A DNA stretch of 29,134 nt from IMG/VR virus record IMGVR_UViG_3300048576_000580, positions 1-29,134 of that record; one strand, 5' to 3'. The first letter of the stretch is position 1; the number at the start of each line of letters is the position of its first letter. Positions 1-28,760 of the stretch are shown here, piece after piece. A program made the translations under genes and the position numbers. The DNA is from a virus (taxonomy: Duplodnaviria > Caudoviricetes). The notes beneath the pieces were generated by a model, which saw nothing but the letters and a program-made list of their open reading frames with translations, was not told the origin of the DNA and searched no databases.

Positions 1-381
1 TTAATCCTTTTTTCGCCGGCCCTTTTTACTGATTTCTACGGCTTGAGTGAGGATTGTAATCTGGCTAAGCTTACCACGCAAAAGTCTATTTTCCTCCTCA
101 AGCCGGTCAATTTCGGCCTGCTTGTTATTGATAACCGGCGGACTTGAATCTTGCGCAGAATCTTCTTCAGATAGTAACCAATCAATACTACATCCAACTT
201 CTTTTAGCTTCTTAAAGAAAGCTCTACCGGGTTCTACTGGGCCATTTATATATCTCGATAAATTTGGCTGTGACATACCTAAAGCCTCAGCTAATTTAGA
301 TACACCTCCAAATTTAGTATTTGCAAAATATTTTAACTTTTCTCCAAAAGTCAATGATAGCCCTTGAAAAAAATATTTCAT
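1..381 (-). CDS. XRE-family HTH prophage repressor with C-terminal coiled coil; no S24 autocleavage domain
   Basis: LAEALGMSQPNLSRYING...SIDWLL motif; divergent from Cro-like gene. Confidence 0.85.
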   Translation of the reverse strand: MKYFFQGLSLTFGEKLKYFANTKFGGVSKLAEALGMSQPNLSRYINGPVEPGRAFFKKLKEVGCSIDWLLSEEDSAQDSSPPVINNKQAEIDRLEEENRLLRGKLSQITILTQAVEISKKGRRKKD

Positions 382-1200: not shown

Positions 1201-3087
1201 ATGCTATCACTTGATGAATATGTATTAAGCAATAATATAAGCAGAGCAACTGCTTACAGGAATTTCCAAAAGAACAACATTCCAACGGTTAATATTAACG
1301 GCAGAACCTTTATTGTACAGCCGGAAAACTTCACTTCAATCCTTGCAGATCCGCGGCAGTTGAAAGCCCTAATAAGCAACATTAAGAAAGAGCTTAATAC
1401 ACTTATTGCAAAGGCCCAAAATAATGAATCTGCCAGGGCAGATGCAATTGAGCTAATCCAAAAGGAAATTGAACGCTGGGCTTCACGCGGAGTTAAGATA
1501 ACCGGCTATTCCGCAAAGTCTGTTTACCGGAAAATAAACAAGGGTAAAGAAGCCTTTCAACGTAAGACCCGCAATGATAAGCACTGCTATAAAAACAATA
1601 TCCTTAAAGATACGCTTGAAAATAAAATTCTCCCTTTGGCAGCTCATATATACATTACCAAGGCAATTCACAATATCAATTTGGTTTGTGACGAAGTACT
1701 AATGTATGCCAAAACAGATGAAGACTATTGGGAAGTTGCGGCCGTTCCGAAAGCTACTCTTTACAGAGCTTTAAGGACAGAGTTTTTTGAACGCGGGTTA
1801 GCTGAAAAGCATAAATACTTAAACCATTATAACCTGTGGAAAAATCAGCGGGCATATACAACCGGCGCTTTTACTTCTTCTATTAAATTTATGGACTACA
1901 TCTTTGGTGATGACCATAAAAAGGATATAGCCGGGGCCCTGGTATGGAATGAAAAGCTTGGAAAGTTTGAAACCCTGCAAGTAAACAGTTGGTTCTGGAT
2001 TGAAGCTAAAACGCAGGAAGTTTTAAGCTATGTAATAAAATCAGGTTCGCTTACGGCTGACGATGTAATTACTTCTTTAATGGCTGCGCTGCGCAAATCA
2101 GGCGCGCCCAACACCGGTATAATTGTAGATAACGGAATTGGCGCCAGTGAAGAAGTTAAAGAGTTCTGCCGGCGTTTGGAAATAGAACTTATTCTCGGCC
2201 GTCCATATACTCCAACGGATAAGGCCACAATTGAACGCTGTTTTCAGTACATCAAAACGGAACACGATGTTGAACTTGCAAACTTTGTGGGCAGTAAGCA
2301 TAATACTGAAGGCAGGCACACCGGCCTTTCAATGAGTCCTGAGCAAACCACAATTTTATTTGAAGAATATACAAAGCGCCTTTCCTCATACATAAATGGG
2401 ATGTACCGCACCCGCCCGCGCCAGAGGGTAACAGACGGCCAGGCGCAGACAATTTCCATAGGTGATTATTATGACCGGTATATGACAAATTATAATATAG
2501 ACCGAATTTCAGACCGTCAATTGAGATATGCATATGCGCACGAAAAGGATGTTTTATTTGTAAACAAGATTTCCTTCAAGCACAAAGGCGTATTACATAC
2601 CTTTATTCCTGCAACGGCTTTAGGGGTTGTGTATAACAACCGCAGATATATAATTATGTGGAACCCAAATGACCTGAAAGAAATTGATGTTTATTGCAAA
2701 GATGAAATCCTAAACCGTTATACCGGGGAAATACACGAAAAAGGCAGTTACTTAACAACAATGTATAACATTGCTCTAAGCCCTTCCAAACAGTTAATGG
2801 TTGCAAATTATAACAAGGAATGTGAGAAAGCAGTACGTGAGCTTGCTTTTGCAATGGTAGATAAAGACGTAACAAATACAATTAACAATTCCGGCAATAT
2901 AGTCAATGTCCGCAAAGATATGATTAAAGAAACCGTTAACATTATTAAACAGGAACTGCCTGTTGAAAAAATTAAAATTGCACAAGACAAAATTCAAAAG
3001 GGAGAGGAAATATATTCAGAGCTTACTTTTACACAGGATGCAGAAACTGAAGAAGAAAGCTCATTAACCTTTGAAGACGAAGCTTAA
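1201..3087 (+). CDS. MuA-like DDE transposase
   Basis: N-terminal HTH; S.KSVYR..RKTRND DNA-binding region; catalytic FGDDH / IVDNG / KATIERCF; GGAG RBS before ATG 1201. Confidence 0.9.
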   Translation: MLSLDEYVLSNNISRATAYRNFQKNNIPTVNINGRTFIVQPENFTSILADPRQLKALISNIKKELNTLIAKAQNNESARADAIELIQKEIERWASRGVKITGYSAKSVYRKINKGKEAFQRKTRNDKHCYKNNILKDTLENKILPLAAHIYITKAIHNINLVCDEVLMYAKTDEDYWEVAAVPKATLYRALRTEFFERGLAEKHKYLNHYNLWKNQRAYTTGAFTSSIKFMDYIFGDDHKKDIAGALVWNEKLGKFETLQVNSWFWIEAKTQEVLSYVIKSGSLTADDVITSLMAALRKSGAPNTGIIVDNGIGASEEVKEFCRRLEIELILGRPYTPTDKATIERCFQYIKTEHDVELANFVGSKHNTEGRHTGLSMSPEQTTILFEEYTKRLSSYINGMYRTRPRQRVTDGQAQTISIGDYYDRYMTNYNIDRISDRQLRYAYAHEKDVLFVNKISFKHKGVLHTFIPATALGVVYNNRRYIIMWNPNDLKEIDVYCKDEILNRYTGEIHEKGSYLTTMYNIALSPSKQLMVANYNKECEKAVRELAFAMVDKDVTNTINNSGNIVNVRKDMIKETVNIIKQELPVEKIKIAQDKIQKGEEIYSELTFTQDAETEEESSLTFEDEA

Positions 3088-3121
3088 ATAAATGTTCAAT
3101 TATAAAAATAAGGAGTTAACT

Positions 3122-3478
3122 ATGGCAACTAATGAAGCTCTATCAGACGTTTTAATTTATCCAACAGTTAAAACAATCAAGAACAAAAGTGACAGAGATA
3201 TTATCCTAACTGAAATCCGTTCCTCTCAAATGCAGATTTCACAGATAATAGACTCAGAACGCCTGGCAAAAGATGAAATAAAAAAAATAAATAATCTGAT
3301 AAAAGCCAGCAAAGAAGCAAAAAAAATGAAAGAACTTAAAGTGCAGATTAAGAAGAACCGCATTCTTGTTGACCAGCTTCTTAATGAACGTACCGGGATG
3401 CTTAAATTAGCTAAGAAGCTAAATATTGACGTTACTGAAGACGTTAAAAACATTAGACAGATTGAAGCTAATGTATAA
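3122..3478 (+). CDS. Coiled-coil hypothetical protein in the usual MuB position
   Basis: AAGGAG RBS before ATG 3122; Lys-rich helical; no Walker A. Confidence 0.7.
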   Translation: MATNEALSDVLIYPTVKTIKNKSDRDIILTEIRSSQMQISQIIDSERLAKDEIKKINNLIKASKEAKKMKELKVQIKKNRILVDQLLNERTGMLKLAKKLNIDVTEDVKNIRQIEANV

Positions 3479-3998
3479 AGGATTTAAGACATACCGCCAT
3501 TACATAAATGCCCGGTTACATACCTATTCCCGGGGTATAACCGGAGATGATACTGCATTGCGGGAAAACGTTGCAGGAATACTTAAAGAACGCGGTGTTG
3601 AAGGTAACTCAGTAAAATTATTAACAGATAAAGAAGCTGAGTTGCTGTTAAAAGAGTTTGGCCGCATAATGCAGAAAATTTATAAAAATCAGGAAGTAAT
3701 TGATAAAATAATTGGCACTGAAAAAATGATGACCCCACGTCAGAAAGCGGCAATACTTAAGATAGCGAAATATATTTTCAAGTGGGCAGCGCCGGCTACT
3801 TTTTCATTTATCCTTGAAACTTTTCCCAAATACCGTGAAAAACTTTCTCCTTGGGAAATAAAAAATAGCAAGCTTCGCAAATTGTACACTCTGTTAACTT
3901 GCGAGGATGCAGACCTAATAATAAAGAAGCTCGATAAAATACAGGAACGTAACAAAAGCAAATTAAAAGAAAGGCTTACAAATGAGTCTGAAAGTTAA
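3471..3998 (+). CDS. GemA/DUF1018 (Mu gp16)-like protein
   Basis: DDTALRE...SVKLLTDKEA, TPRQKAAI and LTCEDADLIIKKL resemble GemA motifs; start overlaps upstream stop. Confidence 0.55.
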   Translation: MYKGFKTYRHYINARLHTYSRGITGDDTALRENVAGILKERGVEGNSVKLLTDKEAELLLKEFGRIMQKIYKNQEVIDKIIGTEKMMTPRQKAAILKIAKYIFKWAAPATFSFILETFPKYREKLSPWEIKNSKLRKLYTLLTCEDADLIIKKLDKIQERNKSKLKERLTNESES

Positions 3999-4350
3999 CC
4001 TTATTCCGACAACTGAATATACTGAAGTCAGTACACCGGCAATAGCTCTTATACATTCTGATAGTCTTAGACTTATTAGGAAAAATATTTATCAGTGTAA
4101 TTTCACAGACGGTACACTTGCAAATATAGCAAGCTGTTACGCTGCCGCAACTGATGAAAAAACCCGGTTGGAATTGAGCAGCAAATTAGTGACTAAAGAC
4201 TGTGATAGGTGCTTCCAAGTCCAGACCCATTCCGGGCAGGTTGTAATTGACCGGATAATGGATCTTGCAAGGGCCGGTGCTTTAATCTGTTGCGAAATTG
4301 AACGTCTTCAGGGCGTTTATTTATCATCAAATGATAAAGACAATGGCTAA
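3982..4350 (+). CDS. Conserved phage hypothetical protein
   Basis: GTLANIASCYA and DLARAGALICCEIERL match a common phage family pattern (LA.AAACYA / LVKAGALI.AEIERL). Confidence 0.65.
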   Translation: MSLKVNLIPTTEYTEVSTPAIALIHSDSLRLIRKNIYQCNFTDGTLANIASCYAAATDEKTRLELSSKLVTKDCDRCFQVQTHSGQVVIDRIMDLARAGALICCEIERLQGVYLSSNDKDNG

Positions 4351-4582
4351 ACCGAAAACACAAAATAAAGAAGTATGGCTTGATGCTGTTGTAGATGAAG
4401 CAAGAGCCGCATATCCCGGATACAATACAGAAACCTGCTGCCGGATGTATTACACAATAGTAAAGGCCATTTATTCAGCAGGGCGCAGGCCGGAGGATTA
4501 CTACAAACTTATGCTTTTAAGTTTATTTCTGCCTGAAGAACAAAGGGAAAAAGAGATTAAACAGGTAATAACACTTAATTAA
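4343..4582 (+). CDS. Hypothetical protein
   Basis: ORF coupled to upstream stop; ATG 4343. Confidence 0.6.
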   Translation: MAKPKTQNKEVWLDAVVDEARAAYPGYNTETCCRMYYTIVKAIYSAGRRPEDYYKLMLLSLFLPEEQREKEIKQVITLN

Positions 4583-4588
4583 ATAACG

Positions 4589-4608
4589 GGGCCGGTTAAG
4601 CCCGGCCC
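4589..4608. other. GC-rich intergenic hairpin
   Basis: GGGCCGG-ttaagc-CCGGCCC; no U-tract on the + strand. Confidence 0.6.
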
Positions 4609-4637
4609 AAAACTTACAATATCAAAAGGAGTAACTA

Positions 4638-5119
4638 ATGGTTAAAAGTTATGAAGACGCTAACCAGGCATTAATGGAAATGATTGATGCCAAAACAGTA
4701 ATTAAAAAGCACGAAACCATTCTGAATAAAGTAATTACTGCCGCACGTAACAAATTTGAGAAAAATACTTCTGAAGCTCAAAAGCAGATTAAACGGCTTG
4801 AAGAAGACGTTGCTGATTTCTGTAAATTGAACAAAATTGACTTTGAGCAGGTAAGGTCTAAAAAACTTACATTTGGTACAATCGGTTACAGAAAAGGAAC
4901 GGCAAATTTGTTCTGCTTAAAAAGATAACCTGGAAGGATGTTCTTAAAAATATTAAAGAGTCATTCCCGGGTAAATTTATTCGTGAAAAAGTTGAAGTTG
5001 ACAAAGATGCTCTTATGACTTCATTTGAAAAAGAAGAAGTAAGCAAAGGGCAGCTTACAAACCTGGGTGTTAGTGTTGAAAAAGAAGACCAGTTCTATAT
5101 TGACCTAAACGAATCATAA
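4638..5119 (+). pseudogene. gam: Mu Gam-like host-nuclease inhibitor, split by a -1 frameshift near 4900
   Basis: RSKKLTFGTIGYRKG, then in the -1 frame GKFVLLKKITWKDVL...IREKVEVDKDAL...LGVSVEKEDQFYID to TAA 5119; about 160 aa joined. Confidence 0.85.
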
Positions 5120-5178
5120 TCACTAAACAACTAACCGGTGCACCGGGTAAAGGTGCACCAATATTTATGGAGGCAACA

Positions 5179-5409
5179 ATGGATAATCCAGCTAAAGAAG
5201 AACTATTACAGGATAAACGCATAGTATTTAATGCCATTAAAAAACTTGAGGTTTGTACTGACAGCGAAGTAAGCAATGAAACCGGATTTGAAAAGACAAG
5301 AGTTCACCAGATTGTAAAAAGAATAAACCGCGAAGGTTATTTTATTGATGTAAAGAAAATATTCACTAAGGGCCGGGTGGTTTATAATTATTACACAGTT
5401 AAACATTAA
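5179..5409 (+). CDS. Winged-helix DNA-binding protein
   Basis: GGAGG RBS; VFNAIKK...TDSEVSNETGFEKTRVHQIVKRI.REGY plus beta wing. Confidence 0.7.
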   Translation: MDNPAKEELLQDKRIVFNAIKKLEVCTDSEVSNETGFEKTRVHQIVKRINREGYFIDVKKIFTKGRVVYNYYTVKH

Positions 5410-5437
5410 CAATATATAATAGCAAAGGAGAAATGAA

Positions 5438-5824
5438 ATGATTAGAGTAATATTTTTCTGTGACCCTATAAATGATGATTTTGATAATTTGGATTCAATT
5501 AAAAATGAATTTGAGAAAATGGCAATAACATTTAATAGTTTCAGTTTTAAGCAAGTTGAATTACCTCCCAATGTTCAAGATTATGATATATTGTTATTTG
5601 ATGGGGGTGGTTCTTCAATGGGCAATTCTTTTATGTGGGATTACTGCAATGATATTATTGATATGGCTAGGGATAACCCAAGCAAGATATTTATTATGCA
5701 AAGTGCATTTACCTCGCAAGCAATGCAGGACTGCTTAGACAGTCTAAACAGAGAAATTGACCCTAAGCCTATAAATATTTTTCTTACTATACAAGATGCT
5801 AAACAACAAATTGAATCGTTATAA
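5438..5824 (+). CDS. Receiver (REC)-like alpha/beta protein
   Basis: RVIFFCD, YDILLFD and IFIMQSAF spaced like REC strands 1, 3 and 4; AT-rich. Confidence 0.5.
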   Translation: MIRVIFFCDPINDDFDNLDSIKNEFEKMAITFNSFSFKQVELPPNVQDYDILLFDGGGSSMGNSFMWDYCNDIIDMARDNPSKIFIMQSAFTSQAMQDCLDSLNREIDPKPINIFLTIQDAKQQIESL

Positions 5825-5869
5825 ATAAACAATCAAATAATTAACATTTACTACTAACATTCTTACATT

Positions 5870-6172
5870 ATGAAAAACAAAGACGTAGCAAAAATAATAG
5901 GTAAAAGCCCGGCGTATGTATCAATGGCCGTTTCAGGTAAATTAGATCCAGGCGAAGGTATGCTTGAACGGATAAGCGGCTTAGTAGGATTTGAAGATAA
6001 TTTAACCGAGTTGTTTACCACACCGGAATTTCTTGAAATGTGCGATGTGGCTATAAATAAAGCCAGAGCCGGGAAGATCCGCGAGTTTGCAAGTATCTGC
6101 AAACATACTTCAGTTATCCTGCAAAAAAAGATAGTTAAAAAAGAGTACGAAAAAGAAGCAGCTAATAATTAA
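5870..6172 (+). CDS. HTH protein, possible truncated MuB relic
   Basis: KDVAKIIGKSPAYVSMAVSGK HTH followed by LFTTPEF...; no intact P-loop. Confidence 0.6.
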   Translation: MKNKDVAKIIGKSPAYVSMAVSGKLDPGEGMLERISGLVGFEDNLTELFTTPEFLEMCDVAINKARAGKIREFASICKHTSVILQKKIVKKEYEKEAANN

Positions 6173-6185
6173 GGAGGGTTAAGAA

Positions 6186-6401
6186 ATGATTTGCCCATAT
6201 TGCAAAACAGAATCACCAACCTTTACCGGCGAAAAAATACAGCAGGTAATAAAAACCATAATTCATAAAACCTGCCGTATCAGATACATATACTGTAAAG
6301 AATGTAAACAAGTATTCAGTACAAATGAAACCTTGTACGAGTACAACCGGGATATAGATATAAATATCAAGACCCCGGATTTATTTGACGATGCAAATTA
6401 A
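6186..6401 (+). CDS. Zinc-ribbon protein (Ogr/Delta- or NrdR-N-like)
   Basis: CPYC...CKEC..FSTNE; AAGGAGG RBS. Confidence 0.7.
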   Translation: MICPYCKTESPTFTGEKIQQVIKTIIHKTCRIRYIYCKECKQVFSTNETLYEYNRDIDINIKTPDLFDDAN

Positions 6402-7828
6402 TATCTTGAAGGCCTTTGAGCCGTCCCGAAGGCCTCTTCTCCCTCCGCGCTGTACAGCAAAGGTTTAGTATTCCACAAGGCATAATCCCCGGCATCGCTT
6501 AAGTGAGTTCTGTCTCCCTTGCTCTTATCAACAAAAAAGCCGTCCGCTCCTTTTTTCCAAATAACAAGTTCACGGTCTTTTATGCTTTCCTTACATTCAG
6601 TTGAAATTAGAAAGCATCCCTTTTCAAACTGCTTGTTTACATAATTGACCCTGTCTCTAACAGCCGGGTTTTCAGTTGGAAGGCAAAAGCAATAAGGTAT
6701 GTTGCAGTCCAGGAACAAATCACGGATAATATCATAATCAGATTGTGCGCTGCGTGTATCCCGTCTTTTACCTGAAGCATCGCCGGTAATAATAATGCTT
6801 TTACCAAAATTGTATTTATCAATATAGCTGTTTATGTAAACAGCTGCCAACTGTGCAACCTCGGCAGTATTGGAGTTGTGCACCTTAAAATCTTTTATTT
6901 CAGTATATACCAAGCCCTTCAAGCCGATTAAGACCGCACACATCGGATCAACGTTAAAATCAAAGCTCAATATAAGCTCACTAAAGCCCATATCAATACT
7001 TAAGCTTTCGGCCTTGCAGTTATCATCAAACCTGTGATATAATTTAGTGCCGGTTAAAATTCGATATTTACCCTTCATATATACTTCACGGGTTGCAGCA
7101 TCAAACTTGTTTTCAAGGTCGCGGATAAATGCTTTAGGGAGGTAAGTATTATCATAAGTACTTAAGGTTGTGGTAAACAAATCCTTAGTATTAGAATCTT
7201 TTTCAAAATATTCCTCTCCCCATTCCATTGTTTCGGGTTCCGGGGTTCCAGACCAAAAGAACTGCTGACGCGCAGCTCTGGGCTCCCTTATACGGGATAT
7301 TACAACATCGTGGGCCTCACTACTTTGAACAAAGGGTTCGTCCATTCCGGCGGCTGCCACTGTCGGGCCCTTAAGATATTTAGGCTTGTCACTTCCCCTA
7401 ATCCATATCCGGGCAATATCCTTTTGCGAAGTACCGAATACAAGCCGGAATAGACCCTTGCTTTCAACCCAGTCATATTCAATATTGTTCTCATCGCAAA
7501 GAAGCATAAGCTTTTCAACTACAGTATCCACTGCATTATCAAAACTTTGCGATACCGATAAAACCGGATGCGGACGGTTGATAAAAGCCATATGTATTGC
7601 CTCTGCTGCATAAGCATAGGTCTTACCGCTGCCGTACCCGCCCTTTAGACCTTTTTCACGCGCCTGGCTGTTGTGGAAGGCTTTCTGGTTATCATTAGGC
7701 TTATAGTTGGGCAGCAGTGTATTTAAGCTTATAAGTAAGCTTTTGCCCGTTAGTTTTTTGGACTGAAGGAACTTTTCTTTCCTTTCCTCAATCAGTGCCT
7801 GTTCCAAAAGTGTCAGTTTCTTTCTCAT
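6398..7828 (-). CDS. terL: Terminase large subunit
   Basis: Walker A GGYGSGKT, Walker B AAGMDE, motif III SGTPE, nuclease LSFDFNVDPM and HLSDAGDY. Confidence 0.92.
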   Translation of the reverse strand: MRKKLTLLEQALIEERKEKFLQSKKLTGKSLLISLNTLLPNYKPNDNQKAFHNSQAREKGLKGGYGSGKTYAYAAEAIHMAFINRPHPVLSVSQSFDNAVDTVVEKLMLLCDENNIEYDWVESKGLFRLVFGTSQKDIARIWIRGSDKPKYLKGPTVAAAGMDEPFVQSSEAHDVVISRIREPRAARQQFFWSGTPEPETMEWGEEYFEKDSNTKDLFTTTLSTYDNTYLPKAFIRDLENKFDAATREVYMKGKYRILTGTKLYHRFDDNCKAESLSIDMGFSELILSFDFNVDPMCAVLIGLKGLVYTEIKDFKVHNSNTAEVAQLAAVYINSYIDKYNFGKSIIITGDASGKRRDTRSAQSDYDIIRDLFLDCNIPYCFCLPTENPAVRDRVNYVNKQFEKGCFLISTECKESIKDRELVIWKKGADGFFVDKSKGDRTHLSDAGDYALWNTKPLLYSAEGEEAFGTAQRPSRY

Positions 7829-8640
7829 TCTTCAACCGTCGTATGTTTTTTAATTAAAGAAACAAGTTCGCTTGTAGTAATGGCCGGCTTAAGTTCACGT
7901 ACAATTTTTTGAAGCACTTTGAAATCGGCAGAGGTTTCAACATCAACCTTCATTCTGTCGTGCATACGTGTTAAAGCTTCACACGCCTTCAGATCCCCGG
8001 ACTCCTTGGCCAATGAAATTTGTTTTTCCATTAGCTGAAGTATCATATGTTCCCGCAACTCGTCACGGTCGAGAGACAATTTATTATTATTTGAAAACTG
8101 TTCCCGGTTGTACGCGTTGGATATTATCATAATAATATCATTTATATCCTCTTTATTCACGGTAAATGAGAAATTATTATATTTTAATTTAATTCCCTTG
8201 TCAGGTGCAATTAAATCATATTCAAAAAATTGTTCCAGGAATTCCCGGATGTTTTTACCGAAAACAGATTTAACATTATCAGTAACAGGCGCAGCTTTAA
8301 CCTTATCAATAATCTTAGTTATTTTGCGCCCGGATACTTTTTTGCCGGTCTTTGCCATTAGTACCTCTTTTGTTTTTTTTATATTATGGCCAGCTGAAAG
8401 CAGTTCGCCGGCAATGGCCAGTTCTTTGGCCTTAACCGGTGTTTTATCCTTACCCTGGTCTTTGCGTGTTTTACGCAGGCCCGGAACCCGTTTACACATA
8501 TCACGGTAAACGGTCTTTTCAGAAACACTATGTTCGTTGCAAACGGTTATCATAAAAGCTTTGTAGGCGGCTTTATCCCTAATTTTTAAGCTCTTTAATT
8601 TTTTGATATCCAACTCATATTGATTACCGCGATATTTCAT
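7825..8640 (-). CDS. Putative terminase small subunit / DNA-binding protein with transposase-like N-terminal domain
   Basis: Overlaps terL start by 4 bp; SEKTVYR...RKTRKD and HNI...EVLMAKT match the transposase; helical C-terminus. Confidence 0.6.
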   Translation of the reverse strand: MKYRGNQYELDIKKLKSLKIRDKAAYKAFMITVCNEHSVSEKTVYRDMCKRVPGLRKTRKDQGKDKTPVKAKELAIAGELLSAGHNIKKTKEVLMAKTGKKVSGRKITKIIDKVKAAPVTDNVKSVFGKNIREFLEQFFEYDLIAPDKGIKLKYNNFSFTVNKEDINDIIMIISNAYNREQFSNNNKLSLDRDELREHMILQLMEKQISLAKESGDLKACEALTRMHDRMKVDVETSADFKVLQKIVRELKPAITTSELVSLIKKHTTVEE

Positions 8641-9137
8641 TGATTTATCCTTTCAATAATATTTTGCAGGTCTTCAGGCGGTATAACCATAAACGGCCTT
8701 GCAGGAATAACAATAACGTAAGGCTTGACAGCTTTTTCAAAAGTCTTTTTATGTTTTCTGCCGGCAAAAACTGTTCTTACACTGCCGTCCTTGTAGTGCT
8801 TAGACCTAAAGCGGATATTCCGCCCGGGCATATTGATTGTAGCGCCTTCCTGCTGCGCCCTGGCATAAGCTGAAGATTTAGGACTTGTGAAAAGTGTTAC
8901 CAGCAGTTTATCATCATCAATAGTAGAAGAAATTTCAGATAGTGCACCAGTTACAACAAGGGTTTTTGTTCCGCGCAGTTTCCCCTTCTTTTTGGAAGGT
9001 ATCCACTTTGGCCGGCCGCCTTCTTCAAAATTGCGTTGTATGCTTCTTTTTGCTTCAGCTTCTACAATTCTAAGCTTTTTAACCAAAAGGCTGTTAATCT
9101 GCTGTAACAGCAGATTTTTTACGTCTTGTTCCGTCAT
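8637..9137 (-). CDS. Phage virion morphogenesis protein (Mu gpG / tail completion family)
   Basis: RNFEEGGRPKW, KTLVVTGAL, YARAQQEG, IPARPFM; AAAGGAG RBS before ATG 9137. Confidence 0.88.
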   Translation of the reverse strand: MTEQDVKNLLLQQINSLLVKKLRIVEAEAKRSIQRNFEEGGRPKWIPSKKKGKLRGTKTLVVTGALSEISSTIDDDKLLVTLFTSPKSSAYARAQQEGATINMPGRNIRFRSKHYKDGSVRTVFAGRKHKKTFEKAVKPYVIVIPARPFMVIPPEDLQNIIERINQ

Positions 9138-10683
9138 ATAAAAATACTCCTTTCCGTAAACTGTCAAGCTCTGCATAACCGGCCTTAGACTTATCCCCGG
9201 TAAGGCCGTCAATTGCAGTTACACCGTCAAGGTTAAAAAATATTTTTGTAATAATAATTTCCCCGGATGTAAAATTCTTAAAGCCCCAGGTTTCGTTTGG
9301 GTCATTTGCTTTGCGTGAAAATTTTCTTATATTTGCATCAGGATTAAGTAGGTTGCCGCCAACGGTGGAGTGTTTCCCTGGGGTCTCGGCGAAGGCTACC
9401 AGGGCCGAAGCAGAAAAGTGTAACACTTCATCTTCCTTAATCCCATTCATTATTTTTTGAATTCTCCGCCTGTGACAGCTTGCAATATTTATTATATTCC
9501 CTTTATCATAACCAACACTCATAAATATAATATCATCTCCTTCAGTCTTAAAACTGCGGAAAAACAAAAGCGCGCCCTTGCTGTCTTTTATTATTATTGC
9601 CGGGTCTTCAAGAGTAGGTTTCATTGCACCAAAGTAATTAGCCCTGCCGTCTTCTTTCAAAAGCATCTTTTCATACTGGCTTAAATATTCTCTTGTAGCA
9701 ACAAGTTTTCCTTTACCAAAAGGAGTATTAACTTCATTATTGGGAAACTCATTTTCCCAGTTTTCCGGCGTCAATTCCTTTTCAGGCAATTTAATGGAAT
9801 TGCTTTCAAGTATCTTATCAATCAATCCTTTACTTTGATAAGCGTTTACGCTATATGCGTAATTAAAAGTATTCTTAAACTCCTTATAATAATCAGCAAT
9901 ATTGAACTGCTGTTTAATCCATTTACCCCAGATGCTTTTTGCTTCTCCGCTGTTGCGCTGAAAATCCTTGGCAATGATACCGCGTTTTAACAGTGCATCA
10001 ACTGAAGCATCATCAAGTGAATGTATTTGTTCCGGGTTAATTGCTTTCAGCTCTTCAGCTGAAAGAGGTTTAATATAACAACGGCAATTCCAATCATTAG
10101 GCGGCCATATAACAAGCCAGACAGGGTCACTTGCATAATATACAGAGCCGTCAAGCAGGGCGTGAGCTTCACGCACCCGGTTATCCCGGCGCGTACAATA
10201 CATATAAGCCGGGTAAATGTCCTGGAGCTTTTGCAGCTTTATCCATTCCGCAGCGTGATAAGCTGAAGTTGCAGCAGTCCTTAAGTTGGTCTTAAGGTCT
10301 GAAGGAGACGGCATATTCTGTACGGGTATATAATCAGCCAGAATATTATAGGCTTCGTCTTGAAACAATGAGTATCTATCGCTTTCCGGGTTATCAATTA
10401 GATATTTGTGTTTGCCGGAAAGTATTTCAAGAGCCAGGGCTTTCAGCTTTTCTTCAAGCTCATAACTTTTAACAGACGCAACGGTAAAGGCTTCAACCTG
10501 AAAGTTCTTTAATACTTCGTTATCTATGCCGGTATAACTGCGGTCAAATAGAGGATTAGGTTCACTAAAGCCGAGAATGTTTTTTTTGTTATGCTTTATA
10601 ACTGCATCCTGCCCTTTAATATAGCCCTTTACGATTTCCGCATAGAGCTTAGAACCTATATATTTATACAGGAACAAATTCAA
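9094..10683 (-). CDS. MuF (gpF/SPP1 gp7) minor head protein with C-terminal PBECR-like nuclease extension
   Basis: DNRVREAHALLDG...WPPNDWNCRC; C-terminal ELTPENW...YFGAMKPTLEDP...LLFFRSF. Confidence 0.85.
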   Translation of the reverse strand: MNLFLYKYIGSKLYAEIVKGYIKGQDAVIKHNKKNILGFSEPNPLFDRSYTGIDNEVLKNFQVEAFTVASVKSYELEEKLKALALEILSGKHKYLIDNPESDRYSLFQDEAYNILADYIPVQNMPSPSDLKTNLRTAATSAYHAAEWIKLQKLQDIYPAYMYCTRRDNRVREAHALLDGSVYYASDPVWLVIWPPNDWNCRCYIKPLSAEELKAINPEQIHSLDDASVDALLKRGIIAKDFQRNSGEAKSIWGKWIKQQFNIADYYKEFKNTFNYAYSVNAYQSKGLIDKILESNSIKLPEKELTPENWENEFPNNEVNTPFGKGKLVATREYLSQYEKMLLKEDGRANYFGAMKPTLEDPAIIIKDSKGALLFFRSFKTEGDDIIFMSVGYDKGNIINIASCHRRRIQKIMNGIKEDEVLHFSASALVAFAETPGKHSTVGGNLLNPDANIRKFSRKANDPNETWGFKNFTSGEIIITKIFFNLDGVTAIDGLTGDKSKAGYAELDSLRKGVFLYDGTRRKKSAVTAD

Positions 10684-11072
10684 AATACACCTCTGTCAAA
10701 AAGGCATCCGTCACTGCCGTATTGTATTTGTCCTTCAGCCTGTTCTGCCTGTACACCGTCAATAATTACCTTACCGGCTGCAACATCTTTAAGATAATTT
10801 AGAGCTGCATCATATTTATCCCGGATACGTTCCGGGATGTCCTTGTACTGGATTCTGTCGTGAAGGTGGAAAACTGCAATATCATAGGAGACCTGTTTAA
10901 GTATATCCGGCACCGGTGTAAGGGGTAACTTAACGGCCGAGCCGATATAACCGTTTATTAAACTGTCAGCTGAAGAAATGGCGCTATTAAGGTTGTCATC
11001 AACACTATTAGTTAAAGTGTTTAATGTTTCCAGGTCAATCTTAGTAAGAAAATATTCTTTATTGCTGTACAT
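10680..11072 (-). CDS. Mu gp36-like (DUF1320) head-tail connector
   Basis: ADSLINGY...LPLTPVPDILK...DIA...YDAALNYLKDVAAGK. Confidence 0.88.
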   Translation of the reverse strand: MYSNKEYFLTKIDLETLNTLTNSVDDNLNSAISSADSLINGYIGSAVKLPLTPVPDILKQVSYDIAVFHLHDRIQYKDIPERIRDKYDAALNYLKDVAAGKVIIDGVQAEQAEGQIQYGSDGCLFDRGVF

Positions 11073-12489
11073 CTTCTACCTCCTTGAATATTTCAGCCAG
11101 GTAAGGATCTATTTCGGATTCAGGAACAAACTCACCGGTTGAAGAATCAGTGAACTTCTTATCCTTAAGGTAAGCGGCCAGGGCATTTTTAATAGTTGCC
11201 TTGGTATCGGTAATTTTAACAAGCTTCATCTTTGCCAGGCTTTCAAGTTCTTCTTGTTCCGGCTCATACCCCAGCTCTTTAAGGCAGATAAGAATTTTAC
11301 ATTTTATAAGCAGGTTATTGTCATCAACCTCTTCCTCATATACAATACCCGGATAATCTTCAAGATTATCATAATTTAGGTCAAGAAGCTTTTTAATAAG
11401 CGTGTTTACACTTTCTTTAACAAGTAGCATATCTGCAAGAGCAAAGTCGGCCCGTACCATATCGCCAACTTTCGCCTTGGCAAAACTTCCCGCCTGGCCT
11501 TGCTTGGTGGTCATATCCTGACCAAGCACCCTGACACTAATAGCGCTGTCAAGGTAATCAATGAAAGTTTTGAACAACTGGCTTGAATCTCCTTTTGCCT
11601 GATCGCCGGGGAATTCAATCTCCGCGCTATTTGGGATAATGGCAAAGAAGTTTTTACCAAAGTTTTTGACAGCGTTAAATAGTGTATTCCGGTCTTGCGG
11701 ATTCATTAACGGGTCATACTTTCCCAACACTGACGGGCTTGCAAATTTTTCCACATAAGAAGCAAAATCTTTAACACCATAGTTTTTGAAAAGGTATGCC
11801 CAAATAAGGCCGTCAATTGCTCCGTTCAAAAAGCCGTTTTGCTCATTGCCGTCAAAGCTGTGTACTTCCAGTAATTTATTCTCCTGGTCAAGTTCGATTA
11901 ATGGAAGCCGGGATAAATCAACTCTGTCCTGATTAGATGCGCTGCTTGCAGTCCTAAGTGTAAATGCACCTGCCTGGGCAATATCAAGAAATTTATATAT
12001 GTCCTGTTGGTCGTCATAACAAACTAAGTGATTCGGAATAAGCCGGACATCTTTTAATTCCAGTTTATCGCCAACAACTTTATATATTATTTCAAACAAA
12101 CTAACGCCCTGCAATTGTGCTTCTATGCAGTCGGTTAATAAGTTTGTAAAGTGTATATTCTTCAGATTCTTTTTAACAAAAGCAATAATCTCTTTTTGCT
12201 GTGCTTCAGGTACAGGTGAGTCTTCTTCGAATTTTATGGAATAGCTCTTACCGCAGATGCTGATTTTACGCGTTAAGCATACCCCGCCAATATGCAGATC
12301 GCGGCGTTTGATTTCTTCAAAGAGTAGTGACTTCCAGAAGTTAAGCCCTTTTCTGGCAGCTTCAAAATAGTTTTTTACCTGGCTGCTTTCCAGATTTGAA
12401 AAATCATCGGTATAAAGATTGTAAAGCTCGCGCGGATTTGACACCTTTATGGTCTTACTTTCAAAATATTCCGGCTCTTTTTTCTTCAT
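11059..12489 (-). CDS. Portal protein, Mu gp29/DUF935 family
   Basis: LFEEIKRRDLHIGG, EKFASPSVLGKY, ISVRVLGQDMTT; ATG 12489 with AGGA RBS. Confidence 0.9.
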   Translation of the reverse strand: MKKKEPEYFESKTIKVSNPRELYNLYTDDFSNLESSQVKNYFEAARKGLNFWKSLLFEEIKRRDLHIGGVCLTRKISICGKSYSIKFEEDSPVPEAQQKEIIAFVKKNLKNIHFTNLLTDCIEAQLQGVSLFEIIYKVVGDKLELKDVRLIPNHLVCYDDQQDIYKFLDIAQAGAFTLRTASSASNQDRVDLSRLPLIELDQENKLLEVHSFDGNEQNGFLNGAIDGLIWAYLFKNYGVKDFASYVEKFASPSVLGKYDPLMNPQDRNTLFNAVKNFGKNFFAIIPNSAEIEFPGDQAKGDSSQLFKTFIDYLDSAISVRVLGQDMTTKQGQAGSFAKAKVGDMVRADFALADMLLVKESVNTLIKKLLDLNYDNLEDYPGIVYEEEVDDNNLLIKCKILICLKELGYEPEQEELESLAKMKLVKITDTKATIKNALAAYLKDKKFTDSSTGEFVPESEIDPYLAEIFKEVEDVQQ

Positions 12490-12666
12490 TTTGTTATTTC
12501 CTGATTTACTTTTTATGAAAAACTTTTTTTTACAAAAAATATGCTGTTTTTTACGCTTTAATTTCCTTATCCGGGGTAAAGCAGGTAAAAGCATCACATA
12601 TTACAAACCAAAAACCTCCATAAATCGCTTATACGGGCATTTCTCACGAGGCAACGAGTAAATAGT

Positions 12667-12707
12667 AGTCAAAAAAATAGTTGAACGGATTTAACTTTTT
12701 TTTGACT
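12667..12707. repeat. Long imperfect inverted repeat
   Basis: AGTCAAAAAAA-t-AGTTGAA-cgga-TTTAACT-TTTTTTTGACT. Confidence 0.75.
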
Positions 12708-12727
12708 TTTCTCAAATAGCGTGAAAA
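12707..12727 (+). repeat. Internal copy of the right-end motif
   Basis: TTTTCTCAAATAGCGTGAAAA, identical to 26570-26590. Confidence 0.95.
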
Positions 12728-12867
12728 TATTTGCCGATTTTAGATTACTAAGTTGTTATTTATAAACCGTTTAACTTATATCAAATCAGTAAATTTTATT
12801 AAATCCATTCAACTTACTTATTTTTAATAAGTTACGGCTTGAAAAAAAGCTATTTTTTAATAGGTCA

Positions 12868-12891
12868 TTAAATAAGTAGCAACTTATTTAA
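12868..12891. repeat. Perfect 10-4-10 palindrome
   Basis: TTAAATAAGT-agca-ACTTATTTAA. Confidence 0.8.
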
Positions 12892-13077
12892 CGGATTTAA
12901 TTTTTTATAGCTAAAAAGAGGGCTTTTTGAATTTATTTTTCAGAAAATTTTACGAAATATTTGTAATTCAGCTCAAAAAACCACTATTTTGAAAAAACCG
13001 TGTCAAAAAAAGTGTACAAAAAAAGAAAACAAGGTGTTTTTTGCTTTCCTTTTTTCGTGCATTGCAAAAACACTTTT

Positions 13078-13479
13078 TTACATACCTATTTTAAGCGTAA
13101 CGCTGTATATTTCCACTCCGCCCGGTGCATATCCGTAAGGAGCAATAACCACATTCTGTATATCTACGGTCTGTAGTACATTTAACGGTATCTGATAACC
13201 GTTAAGAGTGTTGAAAATACTTTCGCACAAATCAACACATTCAAGCTCTTCAGTACTTTTGGTGCCTACAAGAAACTCAATGGCCCCGGAATATTTTAGT
13301 ATGGAACCGGATGTAGTAGCTTCACTGCTGCCAAATTTGGATAATCTGTAAAAGCAGGAAGGGAAAACCGGATTCCATTCACCTTCAGGTTCAAACTCTC
13401 CCTTGTATGATTTTATAACCAATTCAGGCGAATAAGTTTTTACCCGGTTTACAATATTTGTTATTATTTCTTTTAACAC
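13078..13479 (-). CDS. Mu gp37-like (DUF1834) tail terminator/neck protein
   Basis: IKSYKGEFE....PVFPSCF pattern; GTG 13479 preceded by TAAGGTG. Confidence 0.65.
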   Translation of the reverse strand: MLKEIITNIVNRVKTYSPELVIKSYKGEFEPEGEWNPVFPSCFYRLSKFGSSEATTSGSILKYSGAIEFLVGTKSTEELECVDLCESIFNTLNGYQIPLNVLQTVDIQNVVIAPYGYAPGGVEIYSVTLKIGM

Positions 13480-13633
13480 AATACACCTTAAAAAGTTGCT
13501 ATACAAATATACTTTTTCCTATCTATTTTAATATTGCTAAATAGTTGTTTTGCTCAATTCCAACAACTTTATTGTTGCTTTAATTTCCATTGCACAGTAA
13601 TTTTGAAGCGTATATAAACTAAAATTTATTTGT

Positions 13634-14608
13634 ATGAACGAGAAATTTTATAAGGTCTTTACGGCCGGCAGATACCCACAGGGAAACATAAGTGTTGAAG
13701 ACTTGCAGGAAGTTGTAAAAAACTATGACCCTGCATATTTTGAAGCACCATTAACATTAGACCACGCCGAGACCGGCCCGGTGTATGGCGCTGTAAACAA
13801 AGTTATGCTTCAGGGAAAAGATTTGCTTTGTTCCTTCACAAATCTGACACAGGATATTCTTGAACTAAACCGGGAAGGTAAATACAAAAAACCTTCGGTT
13901 GAAATAACCGAGTATGAAGACAAAGGAATGTATTTGCGGGCGGTTTCACTGGTTCCATTCCCGGCGGTTAAGAACTTACCGGCTATCCAGTTTTCTGAGA
14001 GAAACTCAACTTTCTTCTTCAATGAAGAAATTAATATAAATTTCAACAAACCTATTTATGAGGATAATAAAATGGATGTAAAAACATTCGCGGAAAAAAT
14101 CGGCATTAACATAGCTGATTTTTCAAGTGACCAGGATATTTTGGAAAACGCATTGACCATAGTAACACAGCTTAAAGCTGATATGGCTGCGCAGACTGAT
14201 AAAATTCAGTCTCTTAACATTTCACTGGCAAAATACTCTGAAATGGAAACAGCTGTAGAAGAACTAAAGAAAGAACGTAATGAGCTGCTTCTTTCCGATG
14301 CGGTAGCCGCCGGCAAGATTTCTAAAGACCAGGCAATTGAATTAAAGAAATTTGCTGAAGCTGATTTCGGGGCCTGCAAAAAGTTTATTGAATCACAGGC
14401 TGCACCAGCTGCTGCTGCTCCAAAATTTAAGCCGGAACTTACCCAGGCGGTTATAAAACCAATTATACCTGAGACCGGCAACAAGTTCTTTGATGATAAC
14501 GGTAAGAAAATTACCTACAAAGATGTTCTAGACAACCCAGCCCTGGCCAACAAATTTTCTGATACCGACATAGAAAGGATGCGCCAGGAATCAGAGATTT
14601 TTAATTAA
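13634..14608 (+). CDS. Prohead protease/scaffold (Mu gpI-like)
   Basis: NYDPAYFEAPLTLDH, GKYKKPSVE, YLRAVSLVPFPAVKNL; coiled-coil C-terminal half. Confidence 0.85.
   Translation: MNEKFYKVFTAGRYPQGNISVEDLQEVVKNYDPAYFEAPLTLDHAETGPVYGAVNKVMLQGKDLLCSFTNLTQDILELNREGKYKKPSVEITEYEDKGMYLRAVSLVPFPAVKNLPAIQFSERNSTFFFNEEININFNKPIYEDNKMDVKTFAEKIGINIADFSSDQDILENALTIVTQLKADMAAQTDKIQSLNISLAKYSEMETAVEELKKERNELLLSDAVAAGKISKDQAIELKKFAEADFGACKKFIESQAAPAAAAPKFKPELTQAVIKPIIPETGNKFFDDNGKKITYKDVLDNPALANKFSDTDIERMRQESEIFN
14072..14608 (+). CDS. Nested in-frame scaffold (Mu gpZ-like)
   Basis: GAGGA at 14060-14064 before in-frame ATG 14072, at the domain boundary. Confidence 0.55.
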   Translation: MDVKTFAEKIGINIADFSSDQDILENALTIVTQLKADMAAQTDKIQSLNISLAKYSEMETAVEELKKERNELLLSDAVAAGKISKDQAIELKKFAEADFGACKKFIESQAAPAAAAPKFKPELTQAVIKPIIPETGNKFFDDNGKKITYKDVLDNPALANKFSDTDIERMRQESEIFN

Positions 14609-14641
14609 TTATTTCCCATTAAACGTTAAATGGAGTGACAA

Positions 14642-15445
14642 ATGCCCTATTCAAAAAAACTCGTAGCAGATGCCGTTATTGCGGCGCTGACTGAAGGACT
14701 TGGTATTTACAACCTTTGCAACCGGTCTTATGACGGACTGGTAAAAGAAGACGCATCAAGTGTTGATATACCCGCCCTTCCAGATTTGGTGGTAAAGACT
14801 GCCGGCAGTGCCGGTGACTCTGCCGATCGTAAAGGTGTAAAAGGCGATACCTCAATGGTAAACGTTCCGCTTGATAAAGCAAGCGTGCCAATCAAAGATG
14901 AAATTCTTGCACAGTTTGAAACAAACGGAAAGCTATTGAAGGATTTCATTTCTGGTGCAAACAATTCTTTCATTCAGCACTTTGACACCAAGGTGCTTGA
15001 AACAGCAGTAGCCACTGACCAGGTTCTTCAGTGGAAAGGTGCAACATTAGCCTGGAAAGACATCACAGCGCTAAACAAAAAATTCAACACCAACAAGGTG
15101 CCGCGCAAAGGCCGTATAATTGTTATACCGTCTGCCCTTGAAGATGAATTTTATGATATTGATGTTGTAAAACAGGCAGTTGCTTATAACCGTGACCTGT
15201 TGGAAAACGGTATCGTAAAAGTACAGGGAATGACCTTCTTTGTTTCAGGCCTTTTACCGCAGGTTGGCGGCAAGGATGCCATTGTTGGTATTTACGGCCC
15301 TGGTCTTGCTTTTATTCTCTCAAGATTCTGTGAATTAAAACAGGCCTGGGACGGTGTAAACCTTCAGGACAACATTGATGTACTGAGTCATTTCGGTTAC
15401 AAATTATTGAACACAAAGTTTGCTGTAGTAAACGCAGCAGCGTAA
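14642..15445 (+). CDS. Major capsid protein (HK97 fold, P22-coat-like)
   Basis: Follows scaffold; NRSYDG, VPRKGRIIVIP, DVLSHFGYKLL motifs; GGAG RBS. Confidence 0.8.
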   Translation: MPYSKKLVADAVIAALTEGLGIYNLCNRSYDGLVKEDASSVDIPALPDLVVKTAGSAGDSADRKGVKGDTSMVNVPLDKASVPIKDEILAQFETNGKLLKDFISGANNSFIQHFDTKVLETAVATDQVLQWKGATLAWKDITALNKKFNTNKVPRKGRIIVIPSALEDEFYDIDVVKQAVAYNRDLLENGIVKVQGMTFFVSGLLPQVGGKDAIVGIYGPGLAFILSRFCELKQAWDGVNLQDNIDVLSHFGYKLLNTKFAVVNAAA

Positions 15446-15467
15446 TAAAAACAACCCCCATAGATAA

Positions 15468-15503
15468 CTGCCGGCTGTTTTATATCCGGGAAACGGCCGG
15501 CAG
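15468..15503 (+). terminator. Hairpin after the capsid gene (attenuator or mRNA stabiliser)
   Basis: CTGCCGGCTGTTT-10 nt-AAACGGCCGGCAG; no U-tract. Confidence 0.55.
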
Positions 15504-15515
15504 ATAATAACGAAT

Positions 15516-15986
15516 ATGAATAATACATTAAAATTTTTGATAATACATTGCACAGCCACTAAAGAGGGGCTTGATGTAAGCGCTAAGGCGATTGTTGATT
15601 ATCACACTAAACCTGTAAGCCAGGGCGGGCGCGGTTGGTCACGGCCCGGTTACAGTGAACTTTGCCTGCTTGACGGTACAATGGTTAATTTAAGGCCTTA
15701 TGATGAAGATAACCTTGTTTCCCCGGCAGAACTTACTAACGGCGCTGTTGGATACAACTATTGCAGCAGGCATATATGTTATGTCGGCGGCCTTGATGAA
15801 AACGGAAAGCCGAAAGATACCAGAACAGAAAAACAAAAAGAAGCCCTGGCCGATTACGTTAAAATGTTTCACGCATTGCACCCGGCAGCGGTAATATTAG
15901 GCCATAGGGATTTACCCGGCGTTTGCAAAGCCTGCCCAAGTTTTGACGTTAAAAATTGGCTAAAAGAAATAGGAATAAAGCAGTGA
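15516..15986 (+). CDS. Endolysin, N-acetylmuramoyl-L-alanine amidase (T7 lysozyme-like)
   Basis: IIHCTAT, ICYVGG, DTRT..QK, GHRD, KACPSFDV. Confidence 0.93.
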   Translation: MNNTLKFLIIHCTATKEGLDVSAKAIVDYHTKPVSQGGRGWSRPGYSELCLLDGTMVNLRPYDEDNLVSPAELTNGAVGYNYCSRHICYVGGLDENGKPKDTRTEKQKEALADYVKMFHALHPAAVILGHRDLPGVCKACPSFDVKNWLKEIGIKQ

Positions 15987-16772: not shown

Positions 16773-17159
16773 ATGGACTTATTTATATTTTTTGTGTTGA
16801 TGCTGATATTTACAACGCTGGAAAACTGGTTCCGGGAAGTTGAAAGATTTAATCCCGGTTTGTTAAATGGCCGGGCCGGCGCATACTGGCATCTTTCACA
16901 GCTTGCAGCTCTAATAATAACATTTTTCTATGTTGTATATACCAGGTATGGTATAGAAGCCGTAAAAACTTATACAACGCTTCTTTTACTTGGCTCGGTT
17001 TGGTTTGTATGTTATGACGGCTTATTAAATATCCTGCGCGGATTAAACTTTTTCCGCGTAAGCACGCAAAGCTCAGACCCTTTTCAGAAATTCGGGAAAC
17101 CGATTATAAAAATAATATTAATATCCGGTGCTTTTTTTATTTATTATTTTCTCAAATAG
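16773..17159 (+). CDS. Multi-pass membrane protein
   Basis: About four hydrophobic segments. Confidence 0.65.
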   Translation: MDLFIFFVLMLIFTTLENWFREVERFNPGLLNGRAGAYWHLSQLAALIITFFYVVYTRYGIEAVKTYTTLLLLGSVWFVCYDGLLNILRGLNFFRVSTQSSDPFQKFGKPIIKIILISGAFFIYYFLK

Positions 17160-17160
17160 T

Positions 17161-17349
17161 ATGAATAACTTTAAAAATATAGCTGATATTGTTTTAATGT
17201 GGTGTTTAAGCCTTACCGCCGTTTTTGGAGAGCTGGAAGGGCTGTTGCCGGTAACAGAACAGGTATTAAAGATACTTGCATTACTGGGCTCATTGATCTA
17301 TACATTTATTAAAATAAAAAAAGCTCTTAGCAAGGAGAAGACTAAATGA
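17161..17349 (+). CDS. Small holin-like membrane protein
   Basis: Two hydrophobic segments and a basic tail (EQVLKILALLGSLIYTFIKIKK). Confidence 0.55.
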   Translation: MNNFKNIADIVLMWCLSLTAVFGELEGLLPVTEQVLKILALLGSLIYTFIKIKKALSKEKTK

Positions 17350-26563: not shown

Positions 26564-26573
26564 CTCCCATTTT
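26550..26573 (+). terminator. Intrinsic terminator overlapping the TMP stop
   Basis: GGGAGTT-tctat-AACTCCC followed by ATTTT. Confidence 0.6.
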
Positions 26574-26619
26574 CTCAAATAGCGTGAAAAAAAATTCTCA
26601 AATAGCGTGACGAGTTACT
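26570..26619 (+). repeat. Prophage right end with two tandem putative transposase-binding sites
   Basis: TTCTCAAATAGCGTGA at 26572-26587 and 26595-26610 (23-bp period), then CGAGTTACT. Confidence 0.8.
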
Positions 26620-28399: not shown

Positions 28400-28418
28400 A
28401 ATTTCCCACCGCCCTAAA

Positions 28419-28760
28419 GCAAATTAGTGTAAATTGCCACGGTGCTTTAGCCCGTGGATAACAGAGCTAAGATACGCACGGTCGGGCTTTAGCCATTTTT
28501 TAATCAAGGTAATCCCCCAATCAGGTAAATCATGGTTCAGACAATAATTCTTTTCAATGGCTAAAGCCTGAGGGGGTTGGGGTGGTTCCATTTCCCACCG
28601 CTCTAAAGAACGGTGCTAATTAACCCAATATTAACGCAAATTAGTGTAAATTGCCACGGTGCATCAGCCCGTGGATAACAGAGTACCAACAAACACGGGC
28701 AGGCATTAGCCATTTTTTAATCAAGGTAATACTTTTACGAAACCACATAGTTCAGACAAT
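28419..28760 (+). repeat. Two about 125-bp direct repeats containing REP-like palindromes
   Basis: 28419-28545 and 28636-28760 share GCAAATTAGTGTAAATTGCCACGGTGC..AGCCCGTGGATAACAGAG, TTAGCCATTTTTTAATCAAGGTAAT and GTTCAGACAAT. Confidence 0.88.

Follow-up and report, generated by a model that had tools for sequence, protein, structure and literature searches.

The window, the whole 29,134-nucleotide stretch analysed here (positions 1 to 29,134 of IMG/VR virus record IMGVR_UViG_3300048576_000580), contains a Mu-like prophage, recognised by a MuA-type DDE transposase and by inverted multi-site ends. A minus-strand head operon holds the portal, gp36, F and G genes, the gene studied here (the query gene) and terL, and an operon of protease, capsid, lysis and tail genes diverges from it. 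The query gene occupies the small-terminase position (Table 1), and a preliminary description of the DNA saw in it a paralogue of the transposase end-binding domain. In the sequences compared, a candidate small terminase (TerS) whose first recognition helix tracks the transposase is a real and partly surprising feature.

The modelled query protein consists of a first helix-turn-helix (HTH1), a linker, a second (HTH2) and then a helical hairpin preceded by an alpha/beta insert. It therefore has the N-terminal HTH DNA-binding domain of a TerS and the HTH-linker-HTH architecture of the MuA I-beta/I-gamma end-binding module, and the helical C-terminus described earlier is confirmed by the model. 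HTH2 fits the small-terminase HTH at least as well as the second transposase HTH. The query itself has no Pfam match, no Pfam or PHROG terminase match, no match to a curated TerS family and one weak match to an unnamed PHROG; phrog_2538 was matched by 1 of 97 family members (E 4e-4). A profile search of the family returned 106 representatives of 84-398 amino acids (aa). Among prophage-type members with the RKxRxD linker, terL lies directly downstream in 25 of 25, despite reshuffling of gp36, F and G, a count of members with enough downstream DNA that includes about six found through terL. This confirms the coupling to terL. Solo chromosomal homologues lie beside terL in 0 of 12 cases, have neither the linker motif nor phage genes nearby, and fall on the opposite side of one tree branch. 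These solo homologues (L035, L037, L041, L045-L051, L053-L055, L057 and L064), with up to six matches per genome and no end motifs, are possibly domesticated. The window showed no further candidate for a small terminase.

The preliminary description aligned two blocks of the query (residues 40-98, at 8523-8347) with the transposase (residues 104-172, at 1510-1716), and its letters and coordinates are right. Pairwise the likeness is weak (BLASTP E 0.07, 27 of 69 residues identical; Smith-Waterman score reached by 0.6% of 2000 shuffles). Two profiles, one of 22 transposase sequences and one of the 57 family members, out of 97, in which the linker is kept, aligned over the recognition helix, linker and next helix with an hhalign probability of 94 and an E value of 1.3e-7. 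The score was 46.5, and 100 column shuffles gave 19.3 at most; the linker supplied most of the signal. The likeness of the first block, the helix and RKTRxD linker, is thus real at the profile level. The second block (AGHNI...AKT) did not hold up, as HTH2 against the second transposase HTH gave E 0.38 and the likeness fades in a relative 78% identical. The residual 12-nt nucleotide similarity (blastn E 8) is lost in the same relative and is attributed to chance; 12-mers with at most one mismatch numbered 20 against the transposase and 9 to 18 against four unrelated genes. IS481-type solo domains score 20-23 bits with the query module, and transposases at most 17.5. The correspondence to I-beta/I-gamma stands for the HTH-linker-HTH fold, helix 1 and linker, and is unsupported for the whole module, since the second transposase HTH shows neither alignment nor co-variation with HTH2. 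Helix 1 and linker are homologous to those of the transposase, but a recent duplication is unsupported because the DNA trace is chance and IS481-type domains outscore the element's own transposase. The paralogy, as read from these alignments, is one of helix 1 and linker and is not recent. A place for the N-terminal module in the clan of bipartite DNA-binding domains known from DDE transposases is supported.

Across 14 lineages, helix 1 and linker showed an own-pair excess with the transposase of the same element (p 1.5e-4 and 5e-4), the first recognition helix being the seat of the signal. Three control helix pairs gave p 0.40-0.99, none of 1500 random 9-residue window pairs reached the helix value, and HTH2 did not co-vary with the second transposase HTH (p 0.40). 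The seven discovery pairs gave p 5.5e-4 and the eight held-out pairs p 0.039 (linker 0.048). G007 was paired across contigs, two pairs were joined by indirect record matching, and G003 and c26837 were both counted although 53-56% identical. The co-varying helices (query/transposase) are SEKTVYRDM/SAKSVYRKI in the window, SRATVYRHL/SKAACYRKI in G326, SIRTIQRDM/SLRSIQRKM in L010, whose record does not include its ends, and SVRAVQLWL/DKRSLQIKV in G257. At helix position 3, all five lineages in which the transposase departs from Lys do so in the query as well, with the same residue in four, and two lineages have a query-only change (Fisher p 0.010 overall). In each of the two quick trees the matched changes sit on separate branches, and between the sisters G456 and G007 both proteins show an Arg/Lys difference. 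Silent positions at shared residues differ (3 of 5 degenerate codons in L010), and parallel selection is therefore likelier than recent conversion. The four end sites of G257 have all become ACGAAAAATAATTTGG, with spacings of 23 and 65 bp kept, and both helices are changed too; distal halves of the end motif are altered in G001/G456 and G236 as well. That helix 1 and linker co-vary with the transposase of their own element is supported, and shared end recognition would predict it. The checks proposed in the preliminary description, pairwise hidden Markov model alignment and co-variation across relatives, thus favour helix 1 and linker and not HTH2, with the end motif changing in step in G257.

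The 16-mer TTCTCAAATAGCGTGA proved to be a true end motif, as described earlier, with six matches at up to three mismatches in the window against 0.24 expected. L020 carries an inverted pair of copies, spaced by 65 bp, at its left end; a 65-bp left-end pair is also found in G002, G215, G236 and G326, and a 64-bp pair in G464. End pairs were observed in the window, L020, G002 and G257. As a recurrent paired motif at prophage ends, TTCTCAAATAGCGTGA is therefore likely the transposase site. At 80-200 bp inward from the left end lie clusters of three to five short repeats that differ by lineage, a candidate pac or enhancer.

End-like sites also occur internally, 23 against about 3.6 expected (about sixfold) over 14 element spans, in a scan whose matrix excluded each lineage's own ends; 47 kb of host flank held one. 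The query gene holds 7 of the 23. Against a codon-resampled null, 10 of 19 query genes had an in-gene site at p <=0.043, eight of them at <=0.008 and at three different positions; in the same test 9 of 123 other genes held a site, four of these being one gene. The true matrix scored nine genes in 5 of 11 lineages, and 200 column-permuted decoys gave at most three. The in-gene site of G001 tracks the altered end motif of its lineage (mismatched at 3 of 15 positions, a fit reached by 2.1% of shuffles). In the first 17 kb of the window, sites 3823, 8157, 12709 and 17149 are spaced about 4.3-4.6 kb apart, 12709 lying near the genome centre, and the right-end copy is at 26572. Such sites may be transposase beacons for self-immunity or end pairing. 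Separately, lineage-specific phased repeat arrays lie upstream of portal, often with a 21-22 bp period and with TGT-N13-ACA in G001, L005 and L006; a candidate reader is the zinc-ribbon open reading frame (ORF) 6186-6401, whose relatives match NrdR/Ogr families.

We favour, with a probability of roughly 0.55, the reading that the query protein is a small terminase aiming packaging at the prophage end via a half-site shared with the transposase. The parts with direct support are its place before terL, the modelled fold, the helix 1/linker profile match, the co-variation and the motif at both ends. More tentatively, we advance a more specific form: the helix and linker with which the transposase reads its ends would have been grafted onto a TerS and would co-evolve with the transposase, so that transposon end and pac site would be the same DNA word. 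Mechanistically, HTH2 and the helical hairpin would be an ordinary small-terminase core forming a ring, while HTH1 and linker would be an addition homologous to the first end-binding domain of the transposase, predicted to read the same half-site and to bind the end-distal half of the site. The ring may choose the left end by avidity, since two sites lie there 65 bp apart beside a short lineage-specific repeat cluster, and single internal copies may be bound too weakly. TerL would then be brought to the prophage end, cut the flanking host DNA and pack a headful. As transposase and end sequence drift, helix 1 would have to follow, and co-variation would result.

Several observations weigh against the favoured reading. 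The protein, about 31 kDa by length, lies outside the 15-21 kDa range of TerS protomers given in the review PMC9611059, the excess roughly equalling the extra HTH, linker and insert, and all structural scores fell under the tools' bars. For HTH1 without the linker, the transposase N-terminal HTH fits better (probability 95 versus 33), and a pre-filtered search of five whole genomes at E 1 with the N-module profile missed the element's own transposase in all five. The co-variation idea arose post hoc, after the own-element likeness was already visible, and the held-out signal is weak. L076 and G671 have the query helix altered at position 3 and not the transposase, G429 has only the transposase altered at positions 6-7, and in G326/G215 both helices are altered while the distal half, TTCTC, is kept in 3 of 4 left-end sites. 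Three sister prophages (G672, G673 and G674) without the query gene have the same transposase family, end motif and internal sites; the sites therefore do not need the query protein, and are most simply taken as putative transposase sites. Any model that lets a single motif copy start packaging is in difficulty with them, as common internal sites, including the perfect mid-genome copy at 12709, would compete with the end. The sisters have a phrog_38 TerL, a single one of their internal sites lies where terL starts, and in two of them the terminase-slot protein has, by eye, tandem HTH-like repeats.

The best-surviving alternative, which we still consider unlikely, is that the query protein shares the transposase half-site but regulates, either displacing the transposase from the ends or from internal sites, in a switch from transposition to packaging, or damping its own operon through the sites within the query gene and upstream of portal, with packaging aimed by another sequence. 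Co-variation fits this equally well. The clustering of end-like sites in the query gene and upstream of portal and the G001 site that follows its changed ends also speak for it. Another brake may also be needed, as no MuB-like ATPase was seen: apart from TerL there was no conserved Walker A among ATG-started ORFs of at least 120 aa in nine elements (window 3092-6401, G002, G236, G326, G257, G003, G215, L002 and L020), several of these records being incomplete. No AAA match was found among 26 early ORFs from three elements. However, the strict terL adjacency and terminase-like core suggest packaging, the window offers no alternative TerS candidate, and internal sites also exist where the query gene does not.

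Improbable too, and ranked next, is an ordinary TerS with two generic HTHs and its own pac, in the left-end repeat cluster or the portal-upstream phased repeats, with common ancestry, an old gene conversion or chance behind the co-variation. The higher scores of IS481-type domains, the generic helix consensus, the tandem repeats in the sister protein, the lineage variability of both repeat clusters and a held-out p of just 0.04 all fit this, but matched changes on separate branches, including G456/G007, the flat control helices and random windows, and the silent-position differences, which oppose recent conversion, do not. A non-terminase role, as a late regulator or replication initiator binding the 21-22 bp phased repeats, is very improbable: the lack of a terminase match, the chromosomal solo copies away from phage genes and the likeness of the arrays to protein-binding sites allow it, but it is opposed by the contrast in terL adjacency between prophage-type and solo copies and by the Ogr/NrdR-type zinc-ribbon protein, a better candidate reader of the arrays.

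Table 1. Features of the window and of related elements. Positions are in the window unless a relative is named.
Feature	Position	Strand	Remarks
Repressor gene	1-381		followed by ner and a cII-like gene
Mu-like DDE transposase	1201..3087	+	phrog_310, E 1e-21; first end-binding recognition helix 1510-1536, linker 1561-1593
Internal end-like site	3823..3838	+	2 mismatches; within ORF 3426-3998
Gam gene	4638-5119		split by a frameshift near 4920; 170-200 aa in relatives
Large terminase terL	6398..7828	-	Terminase_3/phrog_2 type; conserved N-terminal helix
Query gene, small-terminase position	7825..8640	-	271 aa; overlaps terL start
C-terminal domain, residues 131-268	7837..8250	-	helical hairpin, residues 192-230, a candidate oligomerisation core
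End-like site in query gene	8157..8172	-	codons 157-162; kept at silent positions
Extended basic linker	8431..8496	-	RKxRxDxGK motif, common to the transposase linker and co-varying with it
HTH1, residues 6-48	8497..8625	-	recognition helix, residues 40-48, at 8523-8497; co-varies with transposase first end-binding helix
Rest of head operon, upstream of query gene	8637..12597	-	portal, gp36 adaptor, gpF, gpG/neck
Perfect internal motif copy	12709..12724	+	non-coding, upstream of portal gene; also in L020 and G326
Internal end-like site	17149..17164	+	2 mismatches
Right prophage end	26572..26610	+	two copies of TTCTCAAATAGCGTGA, 23 bp apart
Left-end repeat clusters	L020 18660-18705		just inside left-end pair; also in G002, G004, G003, G326, G215 and G236
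Portal-upstream arrays	G001 11870-11960; L002 5230-5310; L005 4660-4760; L006 1180-1260; G003 9520-9620		also in G326, G215 and G236
Sister terminase pairs	G672 13748-15899; G673 10015-12269; G674 12425-14681		differ from that of the window

The closest annotated phage matches of TerL are Vibrio phage terminases, at 28% identity, and named relatives of the element come from assemblies of Ignavibacteria, Bacteroidota and Chitinophagaceae. The frameshift in Gam may be decay or an assembly error. ORF 5870-6172 encodes an HTH (95-190 aa in relatives) and, by eye, presumably resembles the front part of MuB without its Walker A. Compared with the window, the early operon, from c through the zinc-ribbon gene, has the opposite orientation in G002, G326, G215, G236, G257, L010 and L076, which puts the transposase mid-genome, adjoining terL. 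gpF (9094-10683; 263 to 877 aa in relatives) has a C-terminal extension with a weak PBECR2/MuF_C nuclease-like match. Outside the prophage, at 28415-28730, two 99-nt host repeats lie 217 bp apart beside a GIY-YIG gene.

Such a protein was not described in the literature searched, a scope outside which most subscription papers fall, including older work on Mu packaging; in the main text of the TerS review PMC9611059, which describes TerS sequence recognition as hard to show in vitro, 'transpos' is absent. Where no MuB is visible, the surplus of internal end-like sites bears on how such phages escape insertion into their own genomes; in Mu, according to the text of PMC7350765, MuB does not account for most of this protection. 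A transposable phage has to initiate packaging at one end of a genome that is still inserted in the host chromosome. If the favoured reading is correct, packaging protein and transposase would be held to one site by co-evolution, and this TerS would be sequence-specific and tractable. Its predicted target, a word of 16 bases, is known, and the natural variants, window type and G257 type, offer a ready specificity swap.

Among known systems, the best profile matches to the two-HTH module of the query (E 6e-5) are the CRISPR-repeat-binding protein of PDB 2lvs, which we take to be Cbp2, and IS481-type HTH_28/HTH_32 solo proteins; unlike the query, these have no RKxRxDxGK linker, C-terminal domain or terminase-gene link. 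The window shares the gene set c, ner, A, Gam, portal, F, G, I and gp36 with Mu and hankyphage, but differs from Mu in having no match to the Mu small-terminase family, a TerL of another family and no MuB-like ATPase seen. Mu uses a separate pac near its left end. In transposable phages, packaging begins from the left end and includes adjoining host DNA, 29-31 bp in hankyphage and 50-150 bp in Mu (as given in PMC12135933; gene sets and end sites are treated in parts of PMC8705779 and PMC2628397). As in the TerS of headful packagers (G20C, PDB 4xvn; P22, SPP1 and SF6, covered in PMC9611059), the query gene lies beside terL and encodes an HTH followed by a helical hairpin, with the differences of an extra N-terminal HTH, a transposase-type linker, a greater length and an alpha/beta insert before the hairpin. 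The end-like site within the query gene recalls the P22 pac, which the same review places inside the TerS gene. In MuA I-beta/I-gamma, DBD1-linker-DBD2 (DBD, DNA-binding domain) of TnsB from Tn7 and CRISPR-associated transposons (CAST), IstA and Tc3 (PDB 4fcy, 7svw, 8aa5, 8b4h and 1u78), two three-helix domains are joined by an extended basic linker as in the query, and the TnsB linker sits in the minor groove while DBD1 makes one base contact (described in PMC9308760). In contrast to these proteins, the query has no catalytic domain following, its second HTH is unmatched, and its gene lies in a packaging operon.
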